From Candidatus Woesearchaeota archaeon (GTDB taxonomy: Archaea > Nanobdellota > Nanobdellia > Woesearchaeales > GW2011-AR4), in the NCBI GenBank assembly GCA_016185945.1, contig JACPMR010000002.1:10999-74998 (forward strand): DNA of 64,000 nucleotides, in the 5' to 3' direction. The notes below the pieces were generated by a model, which did not search any database, had not been told where the DNA came from, and worked only from the letters and a program-made list of their open reading frames with translations. Both the position numbers and the translations under genes were made by a program. Each line of letters starts with the position of its first letter. Position 1 is the first letter of the stretch. Below are positions 51,080-61,573 of this stretch, piece after piece.

Positions 51080-52018
51080 TTACTTCTTAAATGCTGTTTT
51101 CATGCTCCAGTTGAATCCAATGTCCTCAATGGTTATTGAATTATTGTTCAAAGAGTCCAAAAACTTAAACTTTTCGTTTTTCTCAAAGCAGCTTCTATGC
51201 CACCATGAAGCACTATCGGAGTTTACAGCTTCTATAACCCTTGCATAGGCTCCTGCATCAAAGTGTATGTACTCAACTACAAGCTTTCCATCATCAGCTA
51301 CGGTGCATCTTGCCACAAACGGCTCTGCAGTCCTTTCCAAAACTGGAGAGTTTGCCTGCAACGCTCCATAGTAGACAGTTCCTGTAATGTTAGCATTACC
51401 GGCGACCATCAATCTCTGGTTTGGGGCAGTTGTGCCTATGCCGACGTTGCCTGCCTCGCTGATTCTCATTCGCTCATTATTGTCGGCGTTGCCTCCCGTA
51501 TAAAACCGAATAACTGCTGCCCCATTGGTGGAGGTGATTGACATCCCTCCTGCTCCGTTAGTTGCCAGTTCTGCGCCAGCCTGCTTTGCCGAGCCGCTAG
51601 AAGTATACGCAGAGCCATAATGATTGAAGAAGTTGGCCGTGACATCATCGGTAACCTGAATTATTGCGCTGGAAGATGTGCCTCCTCCTTGATTTGTAAC
51701 TTTTAATCTCGTCGATGCATCTTGGTCATGTCTTACTTCCAGCCGCTGTGAAGGGCTCGCTGTACCAATGCCCACCTTGTTGTTTGTTGAGTCAACAAAC
51801 AATGTATCCGTATCAATGAATAAGTTGTTTGAAACGTTTAAAGCACCATTTTCCGCTGTAATGCCTGCTCCGCTTATGAGGATGGCTGCCATTACGAATA
51901 GAGCTAACGCTAGGCAGAGCTTTAATATTTGGGTAAAATAGGAGTTCAATCTGGAAAATCTGTTCAAAACAAATCTTTCTTTTTTATTTTTCCTGTATGT
52001 ATTTCTTCTTTTTTCCAT
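51080..52018 (-). CDS. membrane-anchored protein with two copies of a VGIGT(A/T)xPxQRLxV tail-fibre-like motif; GC-rich relative to surroundings
   Basis: TM helix LCLALALFVMAAILISGAG. KVGIGTASPSQRLEV and NVGIGTTAPNQRLMV. A start at the internal Met (52018) avoids overlap with the upstream gene. Confidence 0.55.
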   Translation of the reverse strand: MEKRRNTYRKNKKERFVLNRFSRLNSYFTQILKLCLALALFVMAAILISGAGITAENGALNVSNNLFIDTDTLFVDSTNNKVGIGTASPSQRLEVRHDQDASTRLKVTNQGGGTSSSAIIQVTDDVTANFFNHYGSAYTSSGSAKQAGAELATNGAGGMSITSTNGAAVIRFYTGGNADNNERMRISEAGNVGIGTTAPNQRLMVAGNANITGTVYYGALQANSPVLERTAEPFVARCTVADDGKLVVEYIHFDAGAYARVIEAVNSDSASWWHRSCFEKNEKFKFLDSLNNNSITIEDIGFNWSMKTAFKK

Positions 52019-52028
52019 TCCATTCACC

Positions 52029-54122
52029 TCATGGACTGCCATTCTGTGTTAAAGTTCCTTTCAAAAATACGTATCCAGTCTCATTCACAAAAGCAACTAG
52101 ATTGCTTGAATTGTCCTTTATCCTGAAGTCATTTTTATTTGTGTCAGAGGTTAAAGTACCTTGATTTTCAAATAAAGTTCCATCAATGTACATGCTTCCA
52201 TTGTTTTCTATGATTAAGACATCATTTAGATTGTTTCTTATTTTAAAGGCAAAGTTGTCTGTTGCCTGGAAGTTGGAGTTTTGTTCCAAATTTCCTTTAA
52301 TCACAACATTGCCTGCATCTCCAAACCATGCTATGTTGCTTCCGCTTGAGTTTTTGATGAGGAATTTGTTTATGTCTGGAAGAGAGGTTGAGTTAACTTT
52401 AAAAGTAAAATTAATATCAGCCCAGTCACTCATAGAATTATTATCAAAAGCCAAACAATTCCAAATATAATTTCCATTGGGGATGTTATTAACTATAAAA
52501 GTTTCATAGTCAGAAGTTCCTGTTATATTTTTTGTTTCATCAGCTGCCCATACACCAGAAATATTATGGTATAAAGTAATATTCTTCAGATTCTCATTGA
52601 AATCAGTTGCTGAACAATTGAATATTAGGTTTCCTGTTGTGCTTATGTTGTTGTTTAATGGACTTACTAACGTTACGATTGGTGGTACTGGATTGGATAT
52701 TGTGAATGTTCCAGTGGTGTCATTTCCAGTATTTATACCATCTGTAGCTAGGATTTTTATTTTATATTCATGTGAATTGATAAAGTTAGATGAATTCAAT
52801 AATAAAGTAGTGTTTGGGTAATCAATTTCTATGGTTGATAAACTACTACCATTATCACTTGATATTAATATTGCATATTGGATTGTATCATTGTCTAAGT
52901 CGGAAGCGTTCCATGTTATATTAAAGGATTTGTCGAAGACTTCACTGCCTGTTGGGAAGGTTATTGTGATATTGGGTGTGTTTTGGGACACATTTATCTC
53001 AGATTTTATTACTGTTTCATTTTCTTTTATCATAATCGTGGTCACGTTATCTGTATATGGTAAGACAAAAGCGAAAGCTGTAACGTTTGTTTCGATTGTA
53101 TCACCACCAATCTCCGTTATCGTAAAATCAACATCAAATGTGTGATTGTAAAAAAGAGTACCATTAGATTCGAGAATAATAGAAAAATTACCCGATGAAG
53201 TCTGGTTTTCAATGCTCTGCTCATCTAAAATGTAAGAAATATCTGTAATTAAAGTTCCATTTTTAAGTATGGTTCCACTAAACAAAATTGCTTTCTCGAC
53301 ATTCAATAATTCAGAAGGTTCTTCTAGTTGTTCAAGTAAATGAATGTAAGTTAAGTTATCAATCCATCTATTATTTTGATCGCCTGCATTTCCCATAAAA
53401 TTAAAAAGATTGATTGTGTCATTTTGTGCTTTCCAAGGAACTAGTTTTCCTATAGTACTTGTATCACAACCTGTACTTTCATCTAAACAAGAAGCATCTA
53501 AAGAATTATCATTATCTAAATCGCCATTTGGACAAAAACCAGATATGAAAATAAATCTTGTATCTTGATTTTCCCAAACAGTATCGTTATATTCATCACA
53601 TATGCCAAAAGTGTGTGCCAATTCATGTGCACTTCCATGTCTAAATCCTTCTTCGATAATGACTGCTTTTATGTTAGCAGTTTTTAATGCATTATTTTTA
53701 TAACTTATATATGTATACCCTTTTGTATTATTTTGTCCATGGTTAAAAAACCATCCTTGAGGGACTATTCCAACTACTCTATCTGTTTTATTACTAAGTC
53801 TTCCCTCCTTGTATAATTCTTTAAGGAGATCGAACTTTTCAATTGTACTTAATGTACTTCCTATATTTGAACTAGAAATTCCACGTCTAACATTAGTGAT
53901 AAGTCCTGTATCAGAAAGTGGATAAGTCCTATTTATGAATTGTATACTATTCCCCAATCTCTGATCAAATTCAGAAGATTTTTCATCTATTGCCACAAAA
54001 TCTATTTTTAGTTGTCTTGTTTCTATTACATTTACATGGGTAGTTTTAGAAATAGCTACAACATTATTGATTACTATCATAAATATTATTACTTTTAATA
54101 TAAGTTTGATTATTTTTTTCAT
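52029..54122 (-). CDS. secreted zinc metalloprotease (HExxH) with many N-glycosylation sequons and a C-terminal cassette shared with 56730-58742
   Basis: Signal peptide. GSAHELAHTFGICDEY. Dozens of NxS/T. C-terminal ~110 aa near-identical to the other protein. Confidence 0.7.
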   Translation of the reverse strand: MKKIIKLILKVIIFMIVINNVVAISKTTHVNVIETRQLKIDFVAIDEKSSEFDQRLGNSIQFINRTYPLSDTGLITNVRRGISSSNIGSTLSTIEKFDLLKELYKEGRLSNKTDRVVGIVPQGWFFNHGQNNTKGYTYISYKNNALKTANIKAVIIEEGFRHGSAHELAHTFGICDEYNDTVWENQDTRFIFISGFCPNGDLDNDNSLDASCLDESTGCDTSTIGKLVPWKAQNDTINLFNFMGNAGDQNNRWIDNLTYIHLLEQLEEPSELLNVEKAILFSGTILKNGTLITDISYILDEQSIENQTSSGNFSIILESNGTLFYNHTFDVDFTITEIGGDTIETNVTAFAFVLPYTDNVTTIMIKENETVIKSEINVSQNTPNITITFPTGSEVFDKSFNITWNASDLDNDTIQYAILISSDNGSSLSTIEIDYPNTTLLLNSSNFINSHEYKIKILATDGINTGNDTTGTFTISNPVPPIVTLVSPLNNNISTTGNLIFNCSATDFNENLKNITLYHNISGVWAADETKNITGTSDYETFIVNNIPNGNYIWNCLAFDNNSMSDWADINFTFKVNSTSLPDINKFLIKNSSGSNIAWFGDAGNVVIKGNLEQNSNFQATDNFAFKIRNNLNDVLIIENNGSMYIDGTLFENQGTLTSDTNKNDFRIKDNSSNLVAFVNETGYVFLKGTLTQNGSP

Positions 54123-54478
54123 CTTATTCTAATAAATTTTCTATAAATAATTGTCAGCAAACAAGACACTAAATAATAATATGCTAACAAAACAATAAAA
54201 ACTAATATAAGTGAAGATGTGAAACCATATCTTTCTATATCTATGCTAATATTTGTTATATCTGTAATAAAAATTAAAGGATAAATTGGGCCAGTAACTA
54301 AAAAAGACGGTTTTGATACAATAACGTCTCCAACCTGAGTGTAATAAGCAAAAGGTACTATCCCAAAGAATCCTAAAGTAGCTATAATGATAAATATTAA
54401 GGTGGTTAATATTTTCCATTTCGTCGGTCTAAAAAACTCAACTAAAAACTCATAAATCTTAAATTGTTTTTTTTCCAT
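54119..54478 (-). CDS. small membrane protein
   Basis: 119 aa with 3 hydrophobic segments. Confidence 0.4.
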   Translation of the reverse strand: MEKKQFKIYEFLVEFFRPTKWKILTTLIFIIIATLGFFGIVPFAYYTQVGDVIVSKPSFLVTGPIYPLIFITDITNISIDIERYGFTSSLILVFIVLLAYYYLVSCLLTIIYRKFIRIR

Positions 54479-54551: not shown

Positions 54552-56558
54552 TTAAGTAACTTCCACTCTAATCTCTTTATTACTTCCAGCAACATCAGGA
54601 ACAAAATTTAAATCAATATTTTTTTCTTGTCCAGCATTTATAGTTTCTATTGTAGAATTTTTTAGGGTATTTTCAAAAAACAAACTAATAGTAATATTTT
54701 TATTATCTATAAAATTGTTTTTTATAACAGATCTTACTAAAGTAGTTTTACCTTTAACCAAATCGACATCTTTTATGACTTGAATAGGAATGATCTCTTG
54801 AATAGTGAATCCTATTGTTAAATTTGATTCATACCATATTACTTTATCATCATTTTGTGATGCGCTTAACACATCTGTATCATTATCTTTATCGATATCT
54901 ATTGCAAATACAGACCATGCACCATCTGCAGTGATTGATATATTATGTGGTATAAAATTTGGAGGAACACTACCATTGTTCTCGTACCAAGCTATTTTGT
55001 CATCAAATTCAGAAGCACTTAATACATCAATATCATTATCCTTGTCTAAATCTATTGCAAATACTGATCTTGCTCCATTTGCATCAGTTGCTATAATTCT
55101 AGTAGTCCAATTTGGAATTGAACTACCATTATTTTCGTACCATGCTATTTTATTATCATCAACTGATACACTAACTACATCAATATCATTATCACCATCG
55201 ATGTCTATAGCAAATACCGAAGATGCACCTGCAGCAGATGTTGTTATATTATGAACTGTCCAATTCGGTGGAGAACTGCCATTATTTTCATACCAAGTAA
55301 TTCTGTTATCATCCAATGAAGCACTTACCACGTCTATATCATTATCTTTATCTATATCTTTCGCATATACAGACCATGCATTGTTAACATTTGTTGAGAT
55401 TATGTGTGTGGTCCAATTTAGAGGTGATCCTCCTTTATTCTCGTACCATTCTATCCTATCATTAAAACTTGATTCACTAACCACATCAATGTCGCTATCA
55501 TTGTCTATGTCTATTGCATATAGGCCTCCAGGGTCTTTAACAGAACTTATAATATGGCTTACCCAATTTATTGGTGAACCCCCTATATTTTCATACCATT
55601 CAATTCTGTCAAGACCATCTAGAGTGGCGATTACATCAGTATCATTATCTTTATCTAAATCTATCGCAAACACGGCAATAGGTCTGTCGGCATCTGTCTT
55701 TATTGTATAATTTGTCCAGCTTGGAGTGGATCCACCATTATTTTGATACCATTCTATTTTATTGTCAAAATTGACTGAGCTAATAACATCAATATCTTGG
55801 TCATTATCTAGGTCAGCGGCATAGACAGATAATGCTCCATTGGCTGTAACACTTATATTTCGTGCTGTCCACCCGATTACCGGATCAATAAACAATTCTT
55901 CTAATCCTTCAAGTTCTTTATTTACCTCTAAATTAATATAATTTTTATTATTGAAAGAATAAACAGAAACAGAGTAATTTAAATCAGTGATATCCTTAAA
56001 ATTATAATAATTATTTCCAAATGTTAATGTATGTCCTGTTAAAGAACTTTTATTTAAACCTGGAAACTTTCCTTTTGTAACTTCAAACGCTTTAAAGTAA
56101 ATAGGTTTTTTGCTAACAACGTATTTTGTTCTATTCCAAACAACAAAATCAGAATCTATTTCATACAGAATATTTAATTTTGTATTCTTGTTGGTATTTA
56201 ATAAATTTCTAAGAATATAACTCTGTTTTATTGGTCTTTCATCCACATTAAAGAAACTGGTATCAATTTCTTCATAAATGCTTTCAACCTCTATATTTTG
56301 GGATTTAAACTTATTTCTTATTTTTTTTTCAGAAAAAGGAAGAGTTTCTTTATCAAATGCTTCAACAGTGATATTATCATAATCAATGCCAAATCCTATC
56401 TGCTTAAATCTTTTAAGCTGATTAAACTTATCAACAGCTACTATATCATCTATGATTGGTTTTGTTTGATTACCATTTAAACTAACAGCGCTTACAATAA
56501 CAGAGAAAGAAATAACTATAATAAGGAAAGCTATCACCTGCTTTTTGTTTAACTCCAC
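54552..56558 (-). CDS. secreted FG-GAP/VCBS-repeat beta-propeller protein
   Basis: Signal peptide. About 7 repeats of DxDxDxDIDVxS...D.KIxWYENxGGSxxxW. Confidence 0.7.
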   Translation of the reverse strand: MELNKKQVIAFLIIVISFSVIVSAVSLNGNQTKPIIDDIVAVDKFNQLKRFKQIGFGIDYDNITVEAFDKETLPFSEKKIRNKFKSQNIEVESIYEEIDTSFFNVDERPIKQSYILRNLLNTNKNTKLNILYEIDSDFVVWNRTKYVVSKKPIYFKAFEVTKGKFPGLNKSSLTGHTLTFGNNYYNFKDITDLNYSVSVYSFNNKNYINLEVNKELEGLEELFIDPVIGWTARNISVTANGALSVYAADLDNDQDIDVISSVNFDNKIEWYQNNGGSTPSWTNYTIKTDADRPIAVFAIDLDKDNDTDVIATLDGLDRIEWYENIGGSPINWVSHIISSVKDPGGLYAIDIDNDSDIDVVSESSFNDRIEWYENKGGSPLNWTTHIISTNVNNAWSVYAKDIDKDNDIDVVSASLDDNRITWYENNGSSPPNWTVHNITTSAAGASSVFAIDIDGDNDIDVVSVSVDDNKIAWYENNGSSIPNWTTRIIATDANGARSVFAIDLDKDNDIDVLSASEFDDKIAWYENNGSVPPNFIPHNISITADGAWSVFAIDIDKDNDTDVLSASQNDDKVIWYESNLTIGFTIQEIIPIQVIKDVDLVKGKTTLVRSVIKNNFIDNKNITISLFFENTLKNSTIETINAGQEKNIDLNFVPDVAGSNKEIRVEVT

Positions 56559-56729: not shown

Positions 56730-58742
56730 TTACTTCAAACTCCCCTTCAAAAACAAATAACCACCTTCATTAACAAAAGCAACTAGATTGCTTGAATTGT
56801 CCTTTATCCTGAAGTCATTTTTATTTGTGCCAGAGGTTAAAGTACCTTGATTTTCCTGCAAAGTGCCGTCAATATACATAGAGCCATTGTTTTCTATTAT
56901 CAAGACATCATTTAGGTTGTTTCTTATCTTAAAGGCGAAATTATCTGTCGCTTGGAAGTTTGAGGATTGTTCTAGAACACCTTTTATTACTATATTTCCA
57001 GCATCTCCAAACCATGCTATGTTGCTACCTGAAGAGTTTTTTATGAGGAATTTGTTTATGTCTGGAAGAGAGGTTGTGTTTACAGTGACAGAAGCAGTTA
57101 ATGAAGCAGTTACTGCAGTTGATTCGCTTATTCCAGTTGCATTTGCCTTTACATTGAATGTTCCGCCGCTGCTGAAATTGTAAGCCAGATATACAAATTC
57201 CTTTTCGTTTACAGCTAAAGAGCTTATGTTTATTGTGCTGTTTATCACATTGTTGTTGGCTGTGTCAAACTGCCATTGGACATTTGTGACTGTGTTGCTG
57301 CCGTTGTTCAGAATGACAAATTCAAAGATTTTTAGTGTTCCATTGCTGTACATCTCTGTTATAGATTCTATCTTAAGCGATACAACAACGCTTACATTAT
57401 CCTGTATGTAATAAACACCAAAATCAGATAAATTTAATATACCAAAATTGTTTGAAGAAAATGCCAGAGAGACATTGCAGTAGCCTTCAGAATCCTCGCT
57501 GCAATTTGCTAGAGCATTATTTAATTCCTGATTGAAGTCAAGCACATTTTCTTCATTGCCAAAGTATCCTGTATTATTCCAAGCCTGGCTATTATTTACA
57601 TATAAAATGGGGTTTTGTGTTGCGTTTCTAATTGTAACAGTATTAGCACTTTGTACCTGTGTTCCAAACAACAAACCATCGCTTGGAGTGACTTTGCAAT
57701 ACCATTGATCGCCAGGTGTTAAATTGTTTTTGGCCAATGTTTGAGAGTTTATATTTTGGTTTACACTATTTTTCCACCATTGATAGCTTGAATTTTGCTC
57801 TGTAAAGTTTTCTGGATCGGAATAAGTGTAGTTGCATAATAAGTCTTGTCCAGCATTTGGGATTTCTGGTAGGACACTTACATTAGAAACAGAAGGTGCT
57901 TCATGAGTTCTGTCACAGCTTTGGTCATTGCTTTGATTTATTAAAGTTGATTCATAAACAATATATTTTACACTAGGTGGAGTTACAGCGCCTATCCTGT
58001 TTATGTTTACATAGTCATTGGCGCCCCCTAAATTATCACCGCACTCTGAATCTGTATATAATGTACTATCTGGAGTGCCCTGATCATAATAATAACCTTG
58101 ATGCACATTCAGTATTGTGGCTCTGTTGTAGCAGTCTGTATCGCATATACCACTTCCACCAACCCCTGAGCATGCTACTGTATTCGGAGAGCATAATACC
58201 CCTTCTTTAACTCTGATTTTTGAACGATAAGTGCTGTCGGCATCAGCTTCTGTATGGGCCCTCATTGTCTTAATTAAATAATCAAACTCTGGATCGCCAA
58301 CATTCCCGATATAGTTGTTCATGCCGTTAAACCATGGCGAGCTTCTTTGCGTATCATCCCAAAATCCGCCTATTGCTTCTGAATCACAATCTGGAGAAAC
58401 TGGATCTACTGTAATACTTACCTCATGGTCAGCCATGTGTGTTGCATCATAAGTGAAATTGTAGCATCTTCCTGTATTTGTAGGAGTATAGCTAGAAGAA
58501 ATATCATTATCTTCCACTCTGCTGTTGTCTAAAAATCCAACGTTTGTATCAGAAGCCACTTGAGTCCAATCTTGCTTGCATACTTCCACTGTGCAATTCC
58601 TTACACAAGTTGAGCCTTCGCATTTTACGCCATTATCGGTATAGCCAGAAGGACATGCTGATGTAGTGCAGTTTATGTAAGCCAAAGTATTTGGAATTAT
58701 TAAAAATAATGCTAAAATCCATATTAAATTTATTTTTCTCAT
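56730..58742 (-). CDS. secreted Cys-rich surface protein with shared C-terminal cassette
   Basis: Signal peptide. Cys-rich N-terminus. C-terminal ~110 aa about 90% identical to the tail of 52029-54122. Confidence 0.6.
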   Translation of the reverse strand: MRKINLIWILALFLIIPNTLAYINCTTSACPSGYTDNGVKCEGSTCVRNCTVEVCKQDWTQVASDTNVGFLDNSRVEDNDISSSYTPTNTGRCYNFTYDATHMADHEVSITVDPVSPDCDSEAIGGFWDDTQRSSPWFNGMNNYIGNVGDPEFDYLIKTMRAHTEADADSTYRSKIRVKEGVLCSPNTVACSGVGGSGICDTDCYNRATILNVHQGYYYDQGTPDSTLYTDSECGDNLGGANDYVNINRIGAVTPPSVKYIVYESTLINQSNDQSCDRTHEAPSVSNVSVLPEIPNAGQDLLCNYTYSDPENFTEQNSSYQWWKNSVNQNINSQTLAKNNLTPGDQWYCKVTPSDGLLFGTQVQSANTVTIRNATQNPILYVNNSQAWNNTGYFGNEENVLDFNQELNNALANCSEDSEGYCNVSLAFSSNNFGILNLSDFGVYYIQDNVSVVVSLKIESITEMYSNGTLKIFEFVILNNGSNTVTNVQWQFDTANNNVINSTINISSLAVNEKEFVYLAYNFSSGGTFNVKANATGISESTAVTASLTASVTVNTTSLPDINKFLIKNSSGSNIAWFGDAGNIVIKGVLEQSSNFQATDNFAFKIRNNLNDVLIIENNGSMYIDGTLQENQGTLTSGTNKNDFRIKDNSSNLVAFVNEGGYLFLKGSLK

Positions 58743-61573
58743 GGCGCTAATCCAGTCACTTTTAATTTTGAATAAATCACAGTGGCATTCTTTGGAAGCC
58801 TTATATTAACAGTTAAATTTCCTGGCTGGGTGAAGTTAAGCAATTTATTCGTTAAGCCATCTGTGAATTGGTTTTGTAACTTTGTAGTTTCATTGAAAAC
58901 AATAACGTCAATAAACTGGGTTGTGCTTAAATTGCCGTCAGAAGCCTCTACTAAAATAGAATAGTTGCCAGTGTCATTAATTGTAGTTTGCCATTGACCT
59001 GAAGAGTTAAATGGTGAGCTATAGAAAAAATCTATGCTATTACCTTCCGCATCTGAAGTTGAAATCAATTGGCTTATATTGATTAAATCTCCAGCAATTG
59101 CTGTTACGTTGCTTATCTTTGTTATTTCTGGCGGTGAATTAATATTTGAAACACTAACGAAAACAGTTTCAGGACTTGCTGCTCTTTTGAATGCAATTTC
59201 TGCAACTCCGTCATTATCAAGGTCGGCAATTGCTAGACCGTTGTCTATCAATCCTACTATTTTGTAAGGATCAAACAGTAAGTTTCCATCATTTTTTAAT
59301 ACATAAACGCTTGAGCCTTTGTTTTCGCCTAAAATAATATTGTAATTTCCATCATTGTCTATATCAGCACTGCTGGGACTTATGGCTCCTGGATGTAAGG
59401 TGTTAGAAGCATCATAAATCCATTGCTGTGCTCCGCTCACAGCATCAAAAGCCCTTACAGAGCCAAGACCATCAGGCAAGGTTTTTTCCATTGTAACGAC
59501 TATCTCCATATTTGAATCAGAGTCTAAATTAACTATTGTTGGCGTCGCTCTTGGAATGTCTGTAAAGCTTATAGGAAAGTTTGCATTGTATTCATTGCAA
59601 GTTAAAGGATTAACTACATGCAGTTTATTTTCACAAGTGCTACCTGCAGCGCAAGGTGTATTAGCTGTCACATACACCAATTCATAATCATTATCTTTAT
59701 CAACATCATAAATTACAGCAGAATCCCATAAATAAGCATGCGTGTTGTTGCATAATTTGTTTAATTTTCCAGTGCTTTGATTATATTTAAGGATAATAAT
59801 TCCATATTGAGATGGAACCACAATTTCGGGATAATCATCGCTATCCAGATTTGCTATTGAAACAGAGCCATAAGCTCCTCCATTTCCTATTATATAGCTG
59901 GTTTCATTTGCTCCTGTATTTCCATTAAGAACATAAACCTTTCCTGGCCATTCATCATCGCCATCAAGCAAATCAACAACAATTACTTCTTGTTGCCCGT
60001 CCAAATCAACATCAGCAACAGCGCTTCCTCCATTAAACTTAACTCTAAAGTTAGTGCCATCAAATCTTGGCTCTAAATGATATTGCCATTTTATTGTTGG
60101 CTGTCCGCCATCAAAGTCATAAGCATAGATTGTTCCGTTTCTGTTGCCTGTAATAATTTCTTTCTTTTCATCATTATCTATATCTGCTAAAGTTGGAGGT
60201 CGATAGATTGAGCCGTCTTCGCCGCCTCTTACATTTACAGCATTCCATTTTGGTTTTGTTTCAAAGCCAAGCGGTATTTTCAAGAATGATTTTTTCTTTG
60301 TTTCAGTAGCAAACATTCTTGTAAAGTTGCCCATAACTGGCTTATGGACAAGAATTACAGTGTCCATCAAGCCATTTCCTTCCAAATCAGCAACAGAGGG
60401 CTTAACAACTTGCTGTATGTTGTCGTTTGCTGCGTCTAAGAAGAAATCAACTTGATTTTTTACATCTTTTTTGTCTTTTAAGTCGCCTTTAAGCAAAGTA
60501 AATCCAGTTCTTCTGAAATCATGGTTTTCGGTGGGCCAGTCGAAGAAATTTACTGCACTAAATAAGTCAATTCTTGAGAAGTTTTTACCTGTATCTGGTT
60601 CTAATATTTTCTTACCAGTATTTTTAAGAAGCATCTCGATATCGAATGGTTTTAAAGCAGTATCATATTGTTTTAAGAGCAAAAAAGCCCCAGCTACGTG
60701 TGGTGTAGCAAAACTAGTTCCAATAGTACACCTAAAGTCTGATATTCCCAGTTCACACAAAATCTCATTAAAGAATGTAAAACCTCCTCCTCTTTTAATT
60801 GTTTTTATATAATCTCCAGGTGCCAATAAATCCAAATTGGAACCTACATTTGTGTAACCACTGATAATGTCCTTCTTATTTACAGAACCTACTGGTGTAA
60901 CATTTCCTAAACAAGCAGGAAAATTAATTCCAACCCGACTAAATTCATTTCCCGATGCGAATATAACCGATATTCCCTTAGAAATAGCTTCAGCTACAAC
61001 TTTGGATAAATTAGAATTATAAAGATTTCCACAATTTGTATCATTATAGGTTAAATCACCTAAACTTGCACTAATAGTTGTTATGTTTAATTTTGTGCTG
61101 TTATCAATACACCACTTCATACCCTTTTCTACTCGATTCCAAAATTCTTGGTCTGATGCCGAATCTCCAGTATCTTTAAAGACTTTTATAGATACTATCT
61201 TAGAATTTGGAGCAACACCTGGAAAAATCGCATTAGTAGACGAAATTATCCCAGCAACTGCTGTTCCATGATATTCTACAGCATATGGATTAGAATCGTT
61301 ATCACCAAAATCGTAACCACCTATTACTTTTCCACAACTTTTGTCATTGATATCAGTTGTTATGTTGCATCCACCCAGACTGGGGCGGGTATAATCTATC
61401 CCATCATCAATAATACAAACTGTATTATATTGTCCTGAGATACCACTCAAATATAAATTCCAAGAACCAATTATTCTAGTAGTTGTGGACAAAGCATATG
61501 CAAATTGTACTATAAGTATTAAAGTCATTAAAATTAACAAATTTATTTTAATTCTTTTTATTAATATGGTCAT
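58739..61573 (-). CDS. subtilisin-like serine protease (S8) fused to FG-GAP repeats
   Basis: Catalytic triad contexts IIDDGIDY, HGTAVAGII, GTSFATPHVAG. 944 aa. Confidence 0.8.
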   Translation of the reverse strand: MTILIKRIKINLLILMTLILIVQFAYALSTTTRIIGSWNLYLSGISGQYNTVCIIDDGIDYTRPSLGGCNITTDINDKSCGKVIGGYDFGDNDSNPYAVEYHGTAVAGIISSTNAIFPGVAPNSKIVSIKVFKDTGDSASDQEFWNRVEKGMKWCIDNSTKLNITTISASLGDLTYNDTNCGNLYNSNLSKVVAEAISKGISVIFASGNEFSRVGINFPACLGNVTPVGSVNKKDIISGYTNVGSNLDLLAPGDYIKTIKRGGGFTFFNEILCELGISDFRCTIGTSFATPHVAGAFLLLKQYDTALKPFDIEMLLKNTGKKILEPDTGKNFSRIDLFSAVNFFDWPTENHDFRRTGFTLLKGDLKDKKDVKNQVDFFLDAANDNIQQVVKPSVADLEGNGLMDTVILVHKPVMGNFTRMFATETKKKSFLKIPLGFETKPKWNAVNVRGGEDGSIYRPPTLADIDNDEKKEIITGNRNGTIYAYDFDGGQPTIKWQYHLEPRFDGTNFRVKFNGGSAVADVDLDGQQEVIVVDLLDGDDEWPGKVYVLNGNTGANETSYIIGNGGAYGSVSIANLDSDDYPEIVVPSQYGIIILKYNQSTGKLNKLCNNTHAYLWDSAVIYDVDKDNDYELVYVTANTPCAAGSTCENKLHVVNPLTCNEYNANFPISFTDIPRATPTIVNLDSDSNMEIVVTMEKTLPDGLGSVRAFDAVSGAQQWIYDASNTLHPGAISPSSADIDNDGNYNIILGENKGSSVYVLKNDGNLLFDPYKIVGLIDNGLAIADLDNDGVAEIAFKRAASPETVFVSVSNINSPPEITKISNVTAIAGDLINISQLISTSDAEGNSIDFFYSSPFNSSGQWQTTINDTGNYSILVEASDGNLSTTQFIDVIVFNETTKLQNQFTDGLTNKLLNFTQPGNLTVNIRLPKNATVIYSKLKVTGLAP

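Follow-up and report, generated by a model that had tools for sequence, protein, structure and literature searches.

The gene of a fibre-like partner protein lies directly downstream of most genes that carry a conserved C-terminal module, which is shared by two otherwise unrelated surface proteins encoded in the window. The window is the whole stretch of DNA that was analysed, 64,000 nucleotides of a Candidatus Woesearchaeota genome. The conserved partner gene is the new result reported here; it tells more about the locus than any other feature and was missed in the earlier note on this DNA. The chances appear about evenly balanced that the module is a docking module, which would tether secreted proteins non-covalently to the anchored fibre. 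The two copies of the module in the window are old, and a short part of them has probably been homogenised by gene conversion.

Two surface proteins share a C-terminal module

The two open reading frames that share the module, ORF A and ORF B, are encoded on the minus strand at the positions given in the earlier note, and the peptide strings quoted there are correct. The DNA identity of the two copies was put at about 90%, but the measured value is 84.4% over 347 nucleotides (blastn, E = 1e-108). The identity of the encoded peptides is 92.2% over 116 residues (tblastn, E = 2e-67). The copies differ at 55 positions, and the differences between codons are 34 synonymous and 9 non-synonymous. The copies constitute a direct repeat on the same strand, 4.7 kb apart. 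Their similarity begins abruptly at ...VN(S/T)TSLPDINKF and stops at ...LKG(T/S)L. The heads upstream of the module are unrelated, and no alignment of the two proteins is possible there. Copy A is followed by the canonical tail TQNGSP and a stop codon (52029–52049). Copy B ends with LKGSLK and a stop codon (56730–56732). It lacks the canonical final residues TQNG[NS]P, and the loss of this conserved tail may have impaired its function. The hidden Markov model (HMM) of the family matches residues 577–697 of ORF A (E = 2e-53) and residues 555–669 of ORF B (E = 3e-50). Neither a third copy nor a silent cassette was found within the window by tblastn, blastn, or the family HMM. A collapse in the assembly or an artefact of duplication can be excluded because the copies are in frame, their differences are mostly synonymous, and other, independent genomes show the same arrangement.

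Table 1 Features of the locus (positions within the window)
Feature	Position	Strand	Length	Description
Partner gene	51080-52018	minus		NCBI MBI2653247.1, HYX02_00400
ORF A	52029-54122	minus	697 aa	Signal-like N-terminus, HExxH head, Ig-like domains, then module
Module copy A	52050-52397	minus	116 codons	C-terminus of ORF A; three ~38-aa beta repeats
Probable conversion tract, copy A	52089-52169	minus	81 nt	Module codons 76-102; loop and first strands of repeat 3
Small multi-TM protein	54119-54478	minus	119 aa	Stop overlaps start of ORF A
FG-GAP repeat protein	54552-56558	minus	668 aa	Between the module copies
ORF B	56730-58742	minus	670 aa	Signal-like N-terminus, Cys-rich head (18 Cys), then module
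Module copy B	56736-57083	minus	116 codons	C-terminus of ORF B
Probable conversion tract, copy B	56775-56855	minus	81 nt	dS = 0, compared to about 1.6 outside
Subtilase (S8) and FG-GAP surface protein	58739-61573	minus	944 aa	Upstream gene of the cluster

Every gene of the locus is annotated as hypothetical, including ORF B (NCBI MBI2653251.1, HYX02_00420, "hypothetical protein"), and there is no match to Rfam anywhere in the 64-kb window. The 4.7-kb segment bounded by the module copies contains the FG-GAP gene, the gene of the small multi-TM protein, and the part of ORF A that encodes its head. The stop codon of the subtilase gene overlaps the start of ORF B; a search with the family HMM identified no module in the subtilase protein. 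The position of the subtilase upstream of the B-type gene is conserved at loci L057–L061 and L064. At locus L004 the FG-GAP homologue is followed by an A-like gene and the partner, and at L059 the gene order is B-like gene, partner, and GH57, with the intervening segment absent. The head of ORF A contains the motif HE..H...G.CDE, which is kept in five orthologues, and is a putative zincin-type protease. The only Pfam match of ORF A is a weak one to Big_7, and its head has no match among PDB sequences. Sequons for N-glycosylation are abundant in the proteins encoded by both ORF A and ORF B. Two antisense ORFs on the plus strand (52186–52470 and 56863–57183) are by-products of the repeat, and the substitutions fit the minus-strand frame.

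The module family and its fold

A profile search over 1.84 billion representative proteins identified at least 496 clusters (50% identity) with the module at E ≤ 1e-3, and 147 at E ≤ 1e-10. The family was revealed by this exhaustive search; a word-indexed homology search returned only short fragments of the module. Among the 154 matches listed, 143 have the module ending at most three residues from the C-terminus, and about 13 contain tandem double modules. The hosts are Woesearchaeota, which belong to the DPANN archaea, and at least one bacterium, from the Phycisphaerales. The module has no match among Pfam and NCBIfam models or PDB sequences, and no description of it, of its motifs, or of the gene pair was found in the literature; judged by these searches, the family is uncatalogued. 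The module was found neither in 50,697 phage records nor on viral contigs, and the match at L056 is not significant; a viral origin is therefore rejected. An N-terminal hydrophobic segment is present in 81 of 100 full-length members, and no such segment occurs in the modules (median maximum 19-aa hydropathy 0.70). The earlier note had proposed a conserved anchoring or sorting domain and compared it to CTD and PGF-type signals. The proposal is supported in kind, as the module is conserved, almost always C-terminal, and common to many unrelated secreted proteins. The comparisons do not hold, since a hydrophobic tail and a PGF-type signal are both missing from the module, and its match to the type IX secretion (T9SS) CTD does not exceed chance level.

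The module is composed of three beta repeats of about 38 residues each. Its AlphaFold model, built from an alignment of 69 sequences, is all-beta with a pLDDT of 95.1. No structural neighbour of the model was found, which makes the module a candidate new fold. Weak and scattered sequence matches of the modules are to B_lectin (5 of 69 modules, best E = 5.6e-4), beta-propeller lectins, YncE, and PQQ_2. A fold related to a beta-propeller blade or lectin was nevertheless rejected because the structure search retrieved no propeller, prism, or trefoil.

The heads to which the module is joined are diverse. Pfam domains identified in 74 proteins include Peptidase_S8 (11), Beta_helix (7), LamG (5), Peptidase_M4 (4), and Peptidase_C1 (3); PKD, purple acid phosphatase, and RHS heads also occur. 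The family of the ORF B head has 49 homologues, 11 of which carry the module, and most of the others end in a PKD-like domain. One distant relative of the ORF B head carries PF00963. The phylogenies of heads and modules disagree, and variants of the module track the genome or the partner rather than the head. It is proposed that recombination at the head–module junction has moved the module onto many unrelated secreted enzymes and adhesins. The suggestion that the module is a recombination cassette for swapping heads can thus be retained on an evolutionary timescale only, given the discordant phylogenies and the B-type heads that end in either the module or a PKD-like domain. There is no sign of a mechanism for programmed head switching.

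A fibre-like partner gene is linked to the module

The N-terminus of the partner gene product is basic and is followed by one hydrophobic helix, the juxtamembrane motif SGAGITAENGALNVSNNL, and repeats similar to those of tail fibres (vGIGTxxP). The ORF of the partner, as delimited mechanically, extends to 52042; translation is likely to start at the ATG at 52018, ten nucleotides past the stop codon of ORF A and with GGTGA in front. This arrangement suggests that ORF A and the partner are co-translated. The partner family is characterised by a conserved basic stretch, the helix, the motif AGDVIVK.G, and coiled-coil-like ends. The partner from the window matches the tail fibre phrog_9942 (E = 3e-14), and matches of the family include YadA_head repeats (E = 1e-18), Peptidase_S74 (E = 2e-6), and tail-fibre PHROGs. 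YadA_head repeats, Peptidase_S74, likeness to tail fibres, and coiled-coil ends are features of trimeric fibres, and the partner is probably such a fibre.

An ORF of the partner family is located within 800 nucleotides on the same strand downstream of 42 of the 51 module genes for which downstream sequence is available, typically at a distance of 10–90 nucleotides. Forty-five of the 49 partner-family ORFs are directly downstream of a module gene, and the partner profile has essentially no other matches among 1,095 ORFs. The pairing of module and partner is also present on a Phycisphaerales bacterial chromosome. A comparison of genes with the same head shows that the linkage is specific to the module: B-type homologues with the module have a partner 24–33 nucleotides downstream in four of four cases, whereas those ending in PKD have one in none of three. 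The similarity of modules correlates with that of partners (rho = 0.69), a correlation that is confounded by shared phylogeny. ORF B and the module gene at L007 have no partner immediately downstream, and the partner at L003 lacks the juxtamembrane motif. Distant partners are conserved only over the N-terminal ~40 residues, which include the hydrophobic helix; therefore, the signal of the partner profile may be partly compositional. Two or three consecutive partner genes are present at some loci (L031, L054). The idea that AGDVIVK.G of the partner forms a fourth module-like strand was dropped, as an HMM of a single repeat found no consistent match. None of ten partners scanned contains a cohesin domain.

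Silent-site divergence and probable gene conversion

Between copies A and B, synonymous divergence (dS) amounts to about 0.85 over the whole module; it rises to about 1.6 when one 81-nucleotide tract is left out, and dN/dS is 0.08. The repeat is shown to be old and under strong purifying selection. The tract contains one difference and is 99% identical, with dS = 0 (permutation P = 0.0004–0.005). Outside the tract, the identity of A and B at third codon positions is ~58%, which does not exceed that of A and its orthologues in other genomes (50–61%). The segment corresponding to the tract is only 51–68% identical to orthologues elsewhere and is the most variable part of the module between genomes. 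Paralogous segments are thus near-identical along the tract, including at silent sites, and the tract is not conserved across species, which is the pattern of gene conversion. The tract is a probable short gene-conversion patch. An RNA or regulatory element as the cause of the identity was rejected because no part of the module is less conserved between genomes than the tract. Homogenisation within a genome is observed in two independent genomes, that of the window and MAG H14-bin056_1, in which paralogues that are 50% identical as proteins have module DNA that is ~100% identical. The sharing of the module had previously been ascribed to recent duplication or gene conversion. The values of dS, 0.85 overall and ~1.6 outside the tract, leave recent duplication unsupported, and gene conversion is supported for the short tract only.

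Proposed docking to a fibre and alternative explanations

Binding between module and partner is suggested by the linkage of their genes at 42 of 51 loci and by the same-head comparison (four of four against none of three). The protein composed of head and module would first be exported by the Sec pathway, and the module would then hold it on the cognate fibre encoded by the next gene. The fibre, which would probably be trimeric, would be anchored by its N-terminal helix or cleaved to expose its conserved N-terminus. Enzymes and adhesins would thereby be displayed on the cell surface instead of being lost to the medium. For ORF B and the module protein from L007, the partner would have to come from a gene a few kilobases away. 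Two heads, those of A and B, would have to fit the single partner from the window; the sharing of this partner would explain why the lineage-specific part of the module is kept identical by conversion while the rest is saturated at silent sites. We infer that selection for the common partner maintains the homogenised tract. In diderm bacteria, a partner with this N-terminal helix would stay in the inner membrane, unless the helix serves as a signal peptide and is cleaved off.

The module may instead be a general cell-surface or glycan-binding domain similar to lectins, whose target would be an S-layer glycoprotein, the host surface, or a polysaccharide, and not the partner; the fibre gene would then be merely co-expressed surface machinery. 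This is unlikely, although a threefold internal repeat is typical of lectins, weak matches to B_lectin, beta-propeller lectins, and YncE exist, the heads are degradative enzymes, which often have binding modules, and both proteins from the window are rich in N-glycosylation sequons. It is clearly improbable that the module is the acceptor of a tip subunit, into which the mature N-terminus of the partner would insert as a donor strand, placing the head at the tip of a partner filament. Such an arrangement is parallel to the logic of FimH and FimG: a conserved C-terminal domain carries a variable head, and the product of the next gene has a conserved N-terminal segment directly after a signal-like helix. 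The small residues ahead of D-V-I-V-K could be a signal-peptidase site, and partner genes occur consecutively at L031 and L054. However, partners lack a module-like acceptor domain for polymerisation, their bodies resemble trimeric fibres and not pilins, and their hydrophobic segment of 17–22 residues is long for a cleaved signal peptide.

A very low probability is assigned to a C-terminal pro-domain or a helper of secretion or folding, such as PPC or an intramolecular chaperone, that would be removed after export. Many heads are secreted proteases of classes S8, M4, and C1, which are the classes carrying PPC domains. By contrast, neither PPC (PF04151) nor another Pfam domain matches any of the 69 modules, PPC is absent from the 74 full proteins, many heads (LamG, beta-helix, PKD, RHS) are of types other than proteases, and neither the tandem double modules nor the linkage to the partner would be explained. 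Recent duplication of a whole cassette, an assembly artefact, or an active system of cassette switching or diversity generation is largely refuted and retains almost no probability. The copies are direct repeats on the same strand 4.7 kb apart, and diversity-generating retroelements are described as frequent in DPANN genomes. However, dS is 0.85–1.6 with 55 mostly synonymous differences, the mismatches have no adenine bias (23 of 55, with A constituting 39% of bases), each copy forms the complete, in-frame end of a full-length gene, the window contains no third copy, and the same pattern occurs in other genomes. A template and variable repeat (TR/VR) pair of a diversity-generating retroelement consists of two repeats of ~100–150 nucleotides whose differences are almost confined to template adenines, and a reverse transcriptase is encoded nearby. 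Such a pair was rejected, as the mismatches affect every base (26 transitions, 29 transversions) and are mostly synonymous.

Docking of the module to the fibre is thus preferred. A broader reading, possible but tentative when all its parts are taken jointly, is that the module and the fibre constitute a two-component system for surface display, widely distributed and so far unrecognised, that DPANN archaea share with some bacteria. A pseudo-threefold domain with a new fold would dock monomeric enzymes and adhesins at the membrane-proximal end of a homotrimeric fibre, and the specificity of module and partner would be kept within each genome by gene conversion. If this is true, the system in episymbiotic Woesearchaeota would be the apparatus by which the host cell is presented with proteases and adhesins.

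DPANN archaea spend their lives attached to other cells; as far as we are aware, next to nothing is known of the way in which they display the proteins that contact their hosts. A conserved C-terminal tag found on hundreds of secreted proteases and adhesins, and a fibre gene dedicated to it, would offer a concrete, testable handle on surface display. It would provide a rule for predicting surface proteomes from sequence in DPANN archaea and some uncultured bacteria. It would also add a candidate for a new fold and a new family of the Pfam type, marked by a clear genomic signature. The conversion tract in the most variable part of the module is a small, clean example of concerted evolution, which may be driven by fit to the shared partner.

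Comparison with known systems

The module does not conform to B_lectin (PF01453), which has three QxDxNxVxY subdomains and a beta-prism II fold. All matches of the module to the beta-repeats of phage tail fibres and Bdellovibrio MAT fibres are below significance (TM about 0.2). In the tip adhesins FimH and PapG and in archaeal thread filaments, a variable receptor-binding head is combined with a conserved C-terminal domain that engages the N-terminus of the subunit encoded next, which resembles the layout proposed for module proteins and partner. By contrast to chaperone-usher pili, the module lacks the pilin fold, genes of a chaperone or usher are absent, and the partner resembles a fibre rather than a pilin.

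Conserved C-terminal elements common to many unrelated surface proteins of one organism are also found in the PGF-CTERM/archaeosortase and T9SS CTD systems. PGF-CTERM is a short motif followed by a transmembrane helix and basic residues, whereas the module ends with the hydrophilic ...KGTLTQNG(N/S)P; a PGF-CTERM/archaeosortase signal was rejected in the absence of a hydrophobic segment and of a match to NCBIfam sorting signals. The T9SS CTD is an Ig-like sandwich of ~80–100 residues. It was rejected since only one of 69 modules matches TIGR04183, with a chance-level E of 0.034, and the hosts are DPANN archaea and Phycisphaerales, not Bacteroidota. Unlike in the sorting systems, no sortase-like gene is linked to the module; a fibre gene is linked instead.

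SLH and CWB2 are terminal three-repeat modules that, similar to what is proposed here, anchor diverse exoproteins non-covalently at the cell surface. However, SLH is helical with ~55 residues per repeat and binds a pyruvylated cell-wall polymer; we know of no DPANN archaea with polymers of this type. SLH (PF00395) was rejected, as the module is all-beta and has neither a Pfam nor a fold match to it. The dockerin is a Ca-binding pair of EF-hand-like helices of ~70 residues, in which a loop-helix motif of 22 residues is duplicated, unlike the all-beta module with its three ~38-residue repeats, and dockerin (PF00404) was rejected because it matches none of the 74 full proteins or 69 modules. The cohesin scaffold is an array of cohesins, whereas the partner consists of a fibre body with a single conserved motif near its N-terminus. 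Nevertheless, the dockerin–cohesin system has the same layout: a short, repeat-bearing C-terminal module is joined to unrelated secreted enzymes, and an anchored cognate partner is encoded nearby. In both systems, the modules are similar within a genome and lineage-specific, and many heads are combined with one base.

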